Of a DNA stretch of 4,404 bases, positions 1 to 3,454 are shown piece by piece. The notes under the pieces were generated by a model, which was not told the DNA's origin, did no database searches, and saw nothing but the letters and a program-made list of their open reading frames with translations. Each line of letters begins with the position of its first letter. Position 1 is the stretch's first letter. A program made the translations under genes and the position numbers. Source of the DNA: a virus (Duplodnaviria; Heunggongvirae; Uroviricota; Caudoviricetes); the IMG/VR virus record IMGVR_UViG_2711768001_000010. One strand, 5' to 3'.

Positions 1-160
1 GCTTTGAACTCTTTAGAGTAACGTTGGGTTTTTCTGCTCATTATTAGCTCCTTCTGATGCCATTCTATTTCAGGAAGGAGTGTCCGTTAAACTCAGGCTA
101 CCTCAGGTTATTCGCTTCTGGGCATGGGCGGATCAACAAATGATAGACGGTAATGCAGAT

Positions 161-181
161 TGTAACGCTCGCGGCGTTACA
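161..181. repeat. 21-bp palindrome TGTAACGC-tcgcg-GCGTTACA inside the initiator coding region
   Basis: Perfect 8-bp inverted arms with a 5-nt centre, read directly. Shares the GTAACGC arm with the site at 370-390. Confidence 0.6.
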
Positions 182-369
182 AAAAGTGCAATAGATCGCA
201 TCACTTTTATGTCTGGTTTTGCTGATGCGTTAATTCAGGTTGGATGGCTGGTCGAAAATGACGGAGGGCTTTCTCTACCTAACTTTGAACGTCATAACGG
301 AAAAAGCTCTAAAAAAAACGGGCGGTTACAAACGAGCGAGTAACAAAAATACGCGAACTGAAACGAAAA

Positions 370-390
370 GGTAACGCTGCCAGCGTTACA
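370..390. repeat. 19-bp palindrome GTAACGCTG-c-CAGCGTTAC (371-389) in the initiator linker region
   Basis: Perfect 9-bp inverted arms around a single central base. Additional GTAACG / GCGTTAC half-sites occur at 18-23, 324-330, 339-345 and 406-412. A 9-bp direct repeat AAACGAGCG occurs at 330-338 and 462-470. Confidence 0.6.
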
Positions 391-414
391 CAAACGGATC
401 AAAAAGCGTTACCA

Positions 415-432
415 GAGGAAGAGGAAGAGGAA
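415..432 (+). repeat. (GAGGAA)x3 hexanucleotide tandem repeat encoding an acidic EEEEEE stretch
   Basis: gaggaagaggaagaggaa read directly; in frame 1 it encodes EEEEEE (followed by D) in the initiator linker. Confidence 0.7.
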
Positions 433-788
433 GATCTAAATACTGATCTCCCCCTCGCCAAAAACGAGCGTCTAAAAAATTCGAGCCGGAGGCTATTGAG
501 CTGCCCGATTGGTTGCCGGAAACACTCTGGCATGAGTGGGTCCGGTTCAGACAGGCATTGCGAAAACCGATTCGAACGGAGCAGGGCGCTAACGGGGCGA
601 TACGGGAACTGGAAAAATTCCGTCAGCAGGGTTTTACACCTGAGCAGGTGATTCGACACAGCATCGCCAATGAATACCAGGGCCTGTTCGCGCCGAAAGG
701 TGTTCGGCCTGAGACGTTGCTCCGACAGGTTAACACCGTCTCGTTGCCGGACAGTGCGATCCCGCCAGGCTTCAGGGGGTAACGGACC

Positions 789-1529
789 ATGAAAAATATT
801 GCGACAGGCGGCGTTCTGGAACGCATCCGCCGACTGACCCCGCCACATGTAACCGCCCCATTCAGAACGGTAGCGGAGTGGCGCGAGTGGCAACTTGCTG
901 AAGGCCAGAAACGTAGCGAGGAGATCAACCGCCTGAATCGCCAGTTGCGGGTGGAAAAAATTCTGAATCGCTCAGGCATCCAGCCGTTGCACCGTAAATG
1001 CTCGTTTGCGAATTACCAGGTGCAGAACGACGGCCAGCGATACGCGTTAAGCCAGGCGAAATCCATCGCCGATGAACTGATGACCGGGTGTACAAATTTT
1101 GCGTTCAGCGGAAAACCTGGTACCGGGAAGAATCACTTAGCGGCAGCTATCGGGAATCGCCTGCTGAAAGACGGTCAGACAGTGATTGTGGTTACCGTGG
1201 CTGATGTTATGAGCGCCCTGCNNNNNNNNNNNNNNNNNNNNNNNNNNNNNNNNNNNNNNNNNNNNNNNNNNNNNNNNNNNNNNNNNNNNNNNNNNNNNNN
1301 NNNNNNNNNNNNNNNNNNNNNNNNNNNNNNNNNNNNNNNNNNNNNNNNNNNNNNNNNNNNNNNNNNNNNNNNNNNNNNNNNNNNNNNNNNNNNNNNNNNN
1401 NNNNNNNNNNNNNNNNNNNNNNNNNNNNNNNNNNNNNNNNNNNNNNNNNNNNNNNNNNNNNNNNNNNNNNNNNNNNNNNNNNNNNNNNNNNNNNNNNNNN
1501 NNNNNNNNNNNNNNNNNNNNNNNNNNNAG
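789..1529 (+). CDS. DnaC-family AAA+ helicase loader (prophage paralog); C-terminal half hidden in N-run 1222-1527, 3' end inferred
   Basis: The N-terminal 144 aa are readable and contain Walker A FSGKPGTGKNHLAAAIGNRLL, KCSFANYQV and IVVTVADVMSAL, closely matching recalled E. coli DnaC (FSGKPGTGKNHLAAAI, IITVADIMSA). ATG at 789 is 6 nt after the upstream TAA stop, with a G-rich SD-like AGGGGG at 772-777. The ORF track reads through the Ns to 1583, which is an artifact. At the in-frame position 1527-1529 the sequence is N-a-g, consistent with a TAG stop giving about 246 codons, and the next gene has its own AGGAGG RBS at 1534-1539. Confidence 0.85.
1222..1527. other. N-run (306 nt) of masked or unsequenced bases inside the DnaC-like gene
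   Basis: Read directly. The length is a multiple of 3, consistent with an uninterrupted frame, but the content is unknowable. Confidence 1.
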
Positions 1530-2527: not shown

Positions 2528-3214
2528 ATGACCCCAATAAACATATTTATGACAGTTGCTGATTTCAAACGGCCCAAATTGGAGCTCCCAAACGGGGCAA
2601 ACAAACTACTACTGCACTCTTGCTGTGCTCCATGTTCCGGTGAGGTGATGGAGGCGCTTCAGGCCTCGGGAATCGACTACACCATCTTTTTCTACAACCC
2701 GAACATTCATCCTCAGAAAGAGTATTTAATTCGTAAGGATGAGAATATTCGCTTTGCTGAACAACACGGCGTGCCGTTTATTGATGCTGATTACGACACA
2801 GACAACTGGTTTGAACGAGCCAAAGGAATGGAATGGGAGCCCGAACGAGGGATCCGTTGCACCATGTGTTTTGACATGCGTTTTGAGCGGACAGCGCTGT
2901 ACGCCGCTGAAAATGGTTTCAGTGTGATCAGCAGTTCACTGGGCATTTCACGCTGGAAAAATATGCAGCAGGTTAACGACTGTGGGCGGCGAGCCGTCGC
3001 GCATTATCCGGGCATGGTGTACTGGGATTATAACTGGCGCAAGCAGGGCGGCTCGTCCCGTATGATTGAAATCAGCAAGCGCGAAAAATTCTATCAGCAG
3101 GAATATTGTGGCTGTGTGTATTCTCTGCGCGATACCAATCTACACCGCAAATCTCAGGGACGCCCTCTTATCAAAATTGGTCAACTCCACTACGGTAAAG
3201 AAGAGAAGGAGTGA
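2528..3214 (+). CDS. queH: QueH-like epoxyqueuosine reductase (DUF208 family), phage-carried tRNA queuosine-modification gene
   Basis: 228-codon ORF with N-terminal [11 protein letters not shown] and further Cys motifs ([17 protein letters not shown]) that match my recollection of the DUF208/QueH signature. No SD before ATG 2528; ATG 2549 is an alternative start. The assignment is from motif memory only. Confidence 0.65.
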
Positions 3215-3365: not shown

Positions 3366-3454
3366 NNNNNNNNNNNNNNNNNNNNNNNNNNNNNNNNNNN
3401 NNNNNNNNNNNNNNNNNNNNNNNNNNNNNNNNNNNNNNNNNNNNNNNNNNNNNN
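3366..3454. other. N-run (89 nt) inside the promoter/terminator-bounded noncoding unit
   Basis: Read directly. Confidence 1.

Follow-up and report, generated by a model that had tools for sequence, protein, structure and literature searches.

What purpose could short palindromes serve inside the coding sequence of a phage replication initiator? The question is raised by a stretch of 4,404 nucleotides (nt) from the IMG/VR virus record IMGVR_UViG_2711768001_000010 (Caudoviricetes), called the window here and meaning the whole of the DNA that was analysed, in which a ydaU-like initiator gene carries two palindromes built from the heptamer GTAACGC. The initial annotation had tentatively taken these palindromes, with a scatter of smaller repeats around them, for binding sites of the initiator and for a lambda-like origin between the two domains of the initiator gene, and comparison with related loci argues for that proposal. 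The GTAACGC boxes are probably recognition sites of the initiator's own N-terminal domain and the cis-acting part of a phage replication origin. By sequence comparison, the boxes are confined to the initiator gene and co-vary with the protein that it encodes; binding by the initiator, opening of the DNA and origin activity are what we infer from this pattern, and the locus would then be a lambda-like origin belonging to a new initiator family.

In the window the heptamer GTAACGC occurs six times, where 0.41 copies would be expected in 4404 nt, and none of 200 shuffled sequences reached six. The copies lie at 162-168 (+), 174-180 (-), 371-377 (+), 383-389 (-) and 406-412 (-), with the sixth standing alone at 2331. 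The two palindromes had been described as near-identical and equally spaced, and both points hold: GTAACGC-N5-GCGTTAC is perfect at 162-180 and at 371-389 (0.01 expected), the two being 209 nt apart from start to start. The half-site proposed at 406-412 is likewise an exact GTAACGC on the minus strand, and the (GAGGAA)3 repeat is real, forming part of a longer run of purines. The elements on which the argument rests are the following.

150-156, plus strand: degenerate direct box GTAATGC with one mismatch, 12 nt before site 1.
161-181, no strand: site 1, palindrome TGTAACGC-tcgcg-GCGTTACA, within the coding sequence of the N-terminal domain.
370-390, no strand: site 2, palindrome GGTAACGC-tgcca-GCGTTACA, in the inter-domain linker and the core of the box array.
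405-413, minus strand: terminal box AGCGTTACC, 23 nt past the right arm of site 2, adjoining the polypurine tract and kept across phyla.
414-434, plus strand: polypurine tract AGAGGAAGAGGAAGAGGAAGA, a 21-nt pure-purine run including (GAGGAA)3, candidate unwinding element.
433-454, no strand: AT-rich stretch with two GATC sites and then one C5 tract (C5-TAAAT-C5 in relatives).

The terminal box of the window occupies the exact position expected for the right arm of a second palindrome. The elements had been placed mostly in the linker between the domains, which is right for site 2 but not for site 1. Some of the smaller repeats did not survive comparison. The supposed half-sites at 324-330 and 339-345 are merely GTTAC/GTAAC pentamers overlapping conserved codons (AVTNERVT), and at one of them close relatives differ, with GTAAC in the window and GTTAC in COL60J. 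The direct repeat AAACGAGCG at 330-338 and 462-470 exists, but a relative of 83% identity lacks it, and a repeated 9-mer within 310 A-rich bases is near chance (about 0.2-0.5 expected by our own estimate). On these grounds of non-conservation, near-chance occurrence and polymorphism, the repeat and the pentamers were both rejected as specific elements.

Homologues of the N-terminal domain were collected from 59 phage records and from 160 further loci in genomes and viral contigs. The phages include Escherichia coli TL-2011b, Enterobacter BUCT554, Xanthomonas CP2, Salmonella epsilon15 and phages of Ralstonia, Vibrio and Pseudomonas. The further loci come from Shigella, E. coli, Erwinia, Serratia, Pantoea, Pseudomonas, Stenotrophomonas and Ralstonia, and also from Akkermansia and other Verrucomicrobia, Stieleria and other Planctomycetes, and Ignavibacteria. 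With up to two mismatches allowed to GTAACGC-N5-GCGTTAC, the palindrome is present twice inside the gene in nearly all loci, so that homologous genes retain it across phyla and down to ∼43% protein identity. The offsets from the gene start are conserved as well (site 1 at +148 or +160, site 2 at +337 to +412), both sites persist in loci from E. coli, Erwinia, Serratia, Pseudomonas, Xanthomonas, Ralstonia, Akkermansia and Planctomycetes, and the N5 centre varies freely.

Outside the initiator gene the motif is essentially absent. With up to one mismatch allowed, 148 non-redundant loci contain 301 matches, every one of them from -250 to +499 relative to the gene start, and ∼700 kilobases (kb) of flanking DNA contain none; nor is the motif found in the rest of the 44.8-kb genome of phage TL-2011b. 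A 50-kb stretch comprising a whole Rac-like prophage and its host flanks holds only three full palindromes, all at the initiator, and in this stretch single GTAACGC heptamers elsewhere are as frequent as chance predicts (6 versus 5.4). A third palindrome, TGTAACGCTGCGAGCGTTACA, lies in the ydaT-ydaU spacer of the intact loci COL60J and FDAARGOS_944, 12 nt before the ATG and next to the ribosome-binding site, giving spacings of 192 and 207 nt between the three; this copy is limited to the enterobacterial clade. Sites 1 and 2 are separated by 189-264 nt (mostly 198-232), and these distances show no periodicity of 9-12 base pairs (bp) that would point to helical phasing (Rayleigh R ≤0.19, p >0.35).

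The boxes could owe their conservation to the peptide that they encode, and the reading frames speak against this. The TL-2011b group and several other lineages with intact genes read site 2 as V-T-x-x-A-L-Q, the clade of the window and others as G-N-A-x-S-V-T, and Verrucomicrobia have two palindromes, 23 nt apart, that occupy different frames of a single gene. Because the same site is read in two frames, what is conserved is not a peptide motif. The synonymous constraint sought at the boxes is indeed present at site 1: the third positions of its codons (GGT, AAC, AGC, GTT) carry 1.3-1.8 bits against a median of 0.36, which makes them the most conserved third positions of the domain, Met and Trp codons aside, and this extends to high-G+C hosts. 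The corresponding peptide (residues 50-56) is a loop modelled with low confidence (low predicted local distance difference test, pLDDT). Comparison of the genes thus shows the boxes to be under selection at the level of DNA.

Since the box is written into the coding sequence of the initiator itself, the DNA site dictates amino acids. Its effects on the protein are visible as the GNA...VT sequence, as a change of residue 51 from N to H, and as the addition of four residues by an extra box. The last of these is seen in the clade of the window, where a 12-nt insertion at site 1 amounts to one additional box and lengthens the protein by four residues (GNA-xx-NA...). The degenerate box at 150-156, which is a perfect GTAACGC in relatives, accounts for this four-codon insertion.

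The intact protein has 262 amino acids and matches PHROG 2509, annotated as ‘replication initiation protein’. Its C-terminal half has matches to PHROG families called ‘O-like’ and ‘primosomal protein’, and in many members this domain is DnaT-like. No Pfam family is hit by the intact protein at E ≤0.01, and for the N-terminal domain neither Pfam nor NCBIfam gives an assignment, the sole hit being a weak match to the DnaT C-terminal tail; faint indications are that the N-terminal domain may have a winged-helix fold. Genes upstream of the initiator fall into over 100 unrelated clusters; those downstream, and the C-terminal domains, make up many more. What stays with the boxes throughout is thus the N-terminal domain alone.

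Where the box differs, it differs in a concerted manner, isolated boxes included. All seven boxes of locus L080 carry GTCAC/GTGAC, as do those of L077; L081 has CTAAC/GTTAG, and L044 has GTTGCGC/GCGCAAC. L043 is a further locus with natural box variants. In epsilon15 (33% identity) the boxes are GTCCGCA and form two clusters. These clusters (positions 1554-1594 and 1833-1873 of L007) are 41 nt long, hold four GTCCGCA/TGCGGAC boxes each at 11-12-nt pitch, and begin at +54 and +333 of the initiator gene, so that the grammar is the same with another box and a displaced first cluster. An independent scan of viral contigs for the variant palindrome GTCACGC-N5-GCGTGAC returned 80 loci, 28 of which code for the N-terminal domain. 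Of these 28, 26 have the palindrome at the canonical offsets, and 13 carry two such palindromes 211-238 nt apart.

A comparison of 109 GTAAC-type with 24 GTCAC-type proteins, made without correction for phylogeny, found two alignment columns that discriminate perfectly between them, residues 51 and 113. Residue 51 is N in the GTAAC type and H in the GTCAC type, and this switch is a passenger, because the box itself changes the codon from AAC to CAC. At residue 113, V prevails in the GTAAC type (96%) and K in the GTCAC type (71%; K, Q or R overall), while residue 109 is T in 92% of the former and mostly A in the latter (A, S or G); both lie within a conserved basic stretch, RALTxxRV. The GTCAC group has a mean identity of only 43% and is therefore more than one recent clade. 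As a lead, the type of box appears to track residues 109 and 113.

Across phyla the elements of the linker follow a fixed order. Up to three direct GTAACGC boxes (0-3, at 11-12-nt pitch) precede the palindrome; in some lineages a second palindrome follows 23 nt on; then comes the terminal GCGTTACC box, adjoined by a polypurine tract of the form (GAGGAA)n or (AGAGA)n, and finally an AT-rich stretch. The window retains the palindrome at 370-390, the terminal box at 405-413, the polypurine run at 414-434 and the AT-rich stretch with its GATC sites. The longest pure-purine run has a median length of 21 nt in 142 loci; for other 220-nt windows taken from these loci the median is 8 and the 95th percentile 12. 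The use of AGA codons for Arg in the tract is a weak argument only, as pure-purine runs were preselected and the reasoning is partly circular. The (GAGGAA)n repeat differs in length among close relatives (the window, L088, L147 and others), with purine runs of 21, 27 and 29 nt, which fits in-frame slippage in 6-nt units.

Other features of this region were noted in passing. GATC sites at 397-400, 433-436 and 445-448 flank the terminal box and the polypurine tract, and may place them under Dam/SeqA control. A (G)ATCAAAAAGCGTTACC sequence between palindrome and terminal box is kept in enterobacterial loci. The sequence GATC-C5-TAAAT-C5 (448-455 in the window, 4618-4655 in L003, the K-12 Rac locus) encodes P-L-N-P-P and marks the point at which homology begins between the family of the window and K-12 Rac ydaU, which also has the AT-rich stretch of 433-454. 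One unit of this sequence has been lost in the window through a 10-bp deletion, apparently by slippage between direct repeats; pairs of C tracts of a similar kind occur in Ralstonia, Stenotrophomonas and other loci.

How far does this arrangement resemble known origins? In phage lambda the iterons occupy +348 to +432 of the O gene, and here site 2 is found at +337 to +412 in ∼150 loci, again where the N- and C-terminal domains meet in the initiator's own gene. Both systems have sites with dyad symmetry, a helicase-loader gene next after the initiator, and an N-terminal domain that swaps with its sites as one module while the C-terminal domain stays common; the purine-rich AT tract after the lambda iterons has a counterpart in the G+A polypurine tract after the boxes. 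The differences are (i) in the sites, lambda having four tandem 18-bp iterons whereas here 7-bp boxes at ∼12-nt pitch make up one or two palindromes and single boxes, (ii) in the extra site ∼200 bp upstream within the N-terminal coding sequence, with a third before the start codon in enterobacteria, and (iii) in the tract, a run of G+A purines and not just an AT-rich one. Lambda O shows no similarity to the N-terminal domain (BLASTP E >1, hhalign probability 0.2%), and the protein does not belong to the lambda O family (Pfam Phage_rep_O), only its C-terminal part matching the PHROG ‘O-like’ family. The features in common with lambda-type origins are sites in the initiator's own gene at the domain boundary, co-variation with the N-terminal domain, and a purine-rich tract alongside.

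The Rac prophage of E. coli K-12 is of the same type and has the same gene order (ydaS/T-like, ydaU, ydaV). The C-terminal 124 residues of its YdaU are 81% identical, and the AT-rich stretch with GATC...GATC and C-tract-TAAAT-C-tract is common to both. The N-terminal domain of K-12 YdaU is of the DUF1376 family and unrelated to that of the present family: its residues 1-147 have no BLASTP similarity to it, and the hhalign probability is ≤0.2%. The C-terminal domain and the downstream ydaV are as in the DUF1376 YdaU family and the N-terminal domain is not; the system lies outside both that family and the lambda O family. The linker of K-12 Rac ydaU (4472-4578 of L003) holds different repeats, ATGTTCAAACA, four of them direct (spacings of 33, 33 and 12 nt) and one inverted, followed by the AT-rich stretch with two GATC sites; these repeats are candidate iterons of the Rac origin, oriJ. 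Because K-12 YdaU combines the same C-terminus with another N-terminus and other repeats, the N-terminal domain and the repeats travel as one module. Such joint exchange is the pattern classically seen in lambdoid phages.

The iteron origins of theta plasmids (RepA, pi, TrfA) are similar in having repeated initiator sites that adjoin an unwinding element. Here, too, autoregulation could be served by an inverted-repeat copy close to where the initiator gene begins, and a winged-helix N-terminal fold is conceivable, the indication being weak. The differences are that the present sites lie inside coding sequence and are units of 7 bp versus 17-22 bp; tandem repeats of 17-22 bp with a winged-helix Rep, as in plasmid-type iterons, were not found. 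A search of plasmids for an independent replicon produced two matching records only. One of them, L292 (NC_015459.1, the ‘plasmid’ of Pusillimonas sp. T7-7), is a 41-kb circular record that amounts to a complete temperate phage genome with integrase, head and tail genes; its sole initiator-like gene is of the present family and is followed by an ATP-binding loader gene. As a hint of an independent replicon, L292 is suggestive at most. In the literature on this origin (searched by oriJ, YdaU, the box, and epsilon15/phiV10 replication) nothing was found; that search did not cover Potrykus et al. 2000 (cited in PMC11014345), the likely source for the sequence of the Rac origin.

A working model can be drawn from these parts. 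Dimers of the N-terminal domain would occupy the palindromes, and further subunits would bind the flanking single boxes at ∼12-nt pitch. The duplex would open at the polypurine/AT-rich tract beside the terminal GCGTTACC box, and the C-terminal (O-like or DnaT-like) domain would recruit the helicase loader YdaV. The linker array together with the polypurine/AT tract would constitute the origin proper, with site 1, ∼200 bp upstream, and the pre-ATG site of enterobacteria in an auxiliary or autoregulatory role.

Several observations weigh against taking the boxes for initiator sites within an origin. The initiator gene of the window is broken, as described below, and the initiator cannot be made there in cis. 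Site 1 is missing in the homologues L023, L040 and L052, and L085 and L039 have no recognisable boxes at all. The wide spacing without helical phasing is unlike the tandem array of lambda. The concerted change of the repeats could in part reflect gene conversion. The polypurine tract, moreover, encodes a conserved acidic/basic peptide (EEEEEE or REEKRRE), and selection at the protein level is therefore possible there.

The same evidence has to be held against other functions. The operator role raised as an alternative in the initial annotation would make the N-terminal domain an autorepressor of transcription or translation of the initiator operon and the boxes its operators, not an origin; this is rather unlikely. 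The enterobacterial palindrome 12 nt before the ATG, adjoining the ribosome-binding site, speaks for it, as do sites so widely spaced, unlike a compact iteron array, but the upstream site is restricted to one clade, no promoter-like site was seen in the region, and the universal core of array, terminal box and polypurine tract lies 340-430 nt into the gene, where an operator would be unusual and where lambda has its origin. The two roles are also compatible with each other, and for the pre-ATG site and site 1 the operator role stays open. Binding by some other protein, be it a host factor, YdaT, Cro/CI or the DUF977 winged-helix protein, is improbable: there are several helix-turn-helix genes nearby in the window, yet the hosts belong to several phyla, the boxes stay with the N-terminal domain through neighbours from more than 100 unrelated clusters, and box variants follow the initiator's own residues.

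It is still harder to see the palindromes as hairpins in RNA or single-stranded DNA, whether as mRNA structure, terminator or a signal of the primosome-assembly type, and we regard this as very improbable. Each palindrome could form a stem of 7-9 bp, symmetric changes in the arms look compensatory, site 2 of L001 has one terminator-like match on the minus strand, and many members have a DnaT-like C-terminal domain. Against this, the sequence itself is kept across phyla beyond what pairing would ask for, isolated boxes without a partner co-vary with the palindromes, and many Pseudomonas copies have an unpaired end (GTAACGC...GCGTTAG). A terminator or structured RNA was rejected on the co-variation of unpaired boxes, together with the count of terminator-like matches, which is at chance (1 versus 1.3 expected), and the lack of any Rfam match. 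Nor can the palindromes seriously be put down to chance or to a repeated peptide (x-N-A-x-x-V-T), a notion to which we give almost no credence. The clade of the window does read both intragenic palindromes in one frame, as CNARGVT and GNAASVT; but chance is excluded by the shuffle statistics, and a by-product of the peptide is refuted by the frame and codon data, since the third copy is non-coding, the TL-2011b group, among others, uses a different frame at site 2, synonymous positions are frozen, and residue 51 goes from N to H as the box goes from A to C.

With recognition by the initiator's own N-terminal domain as the favoured explanation, the state of the locus in the window itself can be considered. 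On its sequence, the window is the replication module of a cryptic prophage of the Rac/CP-933P type. E. coli prophage genes match bases 105-1220 at ∼98-99% identity and are annotated as ‘phage replication initiator YdaU family protein’ or ‘hypothetical protein’; ydaV comes next. The surrounding features are these.

1-105, no strand: terminal part of a copy of IS600 (IS3 family); bases 1-125 of the window correspond to IS600 ends in >3000 E. coli genomes.
105-782, plus strand: remnant of the ydaU-like replication initiator (PHROG 2509), a pseudogene in three frames, by alignment to intact relatives of 262 amino acids.
789-1221, plus strand: 5' part of ydaV, encoding an IstB/DnaC-like ATPase, by annotation in relatives and IstB/DnaC-like family matches.

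The gene that had been taken for an initiator holding the boxes is therefore a ydaU-like initiator, as proposed, but a pseudogene in the window. Homology to intact ydaU-like genes begins at ∼105, where the IS600 inverted repeat ...GGCTACCTCA stops; the insertion sequence has taken the place of the first ∼35 codons and of the DNA before them, including the upstream palindrome. IS600 is typical of Shigella and of some E. coli. The A run at 311-318 is A8 here and A6 in intact relatives, a +2 frameshift, and the 10-bp deletion after ∼448 removes one TCCCCCTAAA unit. The 5' truncation, the A8 run and the deletion are why the remnant is read in three frames, and an open reading frame at 80-343 begins within IS600 and is no genuine gene start. 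The initiator gene of the window is dead, and its boxes are therefore a relic copy; the origin in the window is probably a relic too, whose cis elements could fire only with an initiator supplied in trans by a related prophage. Many of the family's proteins from Shigella and E. coli in the databases are likewise shortened, to 129-218 amino acids versus 262, and inactivation of the initiator therefore seems common in cryptic prophages.

YdaV is presumed to be the helicase-loader partner of the initiator. The 3' two-thirds of its gene is covered by a masked run of N at 1222-1527. Further downstream the window holds a DUF977 gene, a zinc-ribbon open reading frame, queH and a DUF1367 gene, and several helix-turn-helix genes lie near the boxes. 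The queH gene (epoxyqueuosine reductase, 2528-3214) is carried by the prophage, as it is in the relative L002. A second masked run, at 3366-3454, falls where a hokD/mok-type toxin locus is found downstream of queH in relatives.

In the window the element is a decayed copy in a genome ridden with insertion sequences, and it matters mainly as a possible target of initiators acting in trans from related prophages. The wider picture, which on about even chances is the correct one, would be that of an uncharacterised initiator family spread across phyla, with an N-terminus outside Pfam, a 7-bp GTAACGC box that is the same from enterobacterial phages to those of Planctomycetes and Verrucomicrobia and that dictates amino acids from within the initiator's own coding sequence, and variants that yield a recognition rule. 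If so, the change of box from GTAAC to GTCAC, accompanied by K in place of V113 and A in place of T109, would be a readable rule of protein-DNA recognition, and the box variants with these two residue changes offer a direct route to testing DNA-recognition specificity. The locus is also a case of overlapping constraint, a binding site in the gene of its own binder, where the demands of the DNA override codon choice and even protein sequence. Its interest rests on conservation across phyla and on the DNA site visibly prevailing over the protein sequence. Should the boxes be the origin, then boxes at 12-nt pitch, the terminal GCGTTACC and the polypurine tract within a recognisable gene would locate origin and initiator in a large and phylogenetically broad range of temperate phages and prophages, elements for which we know of no origin at present, and thousands of uncultivated phage genomes could have their origin marked by this box grammar.

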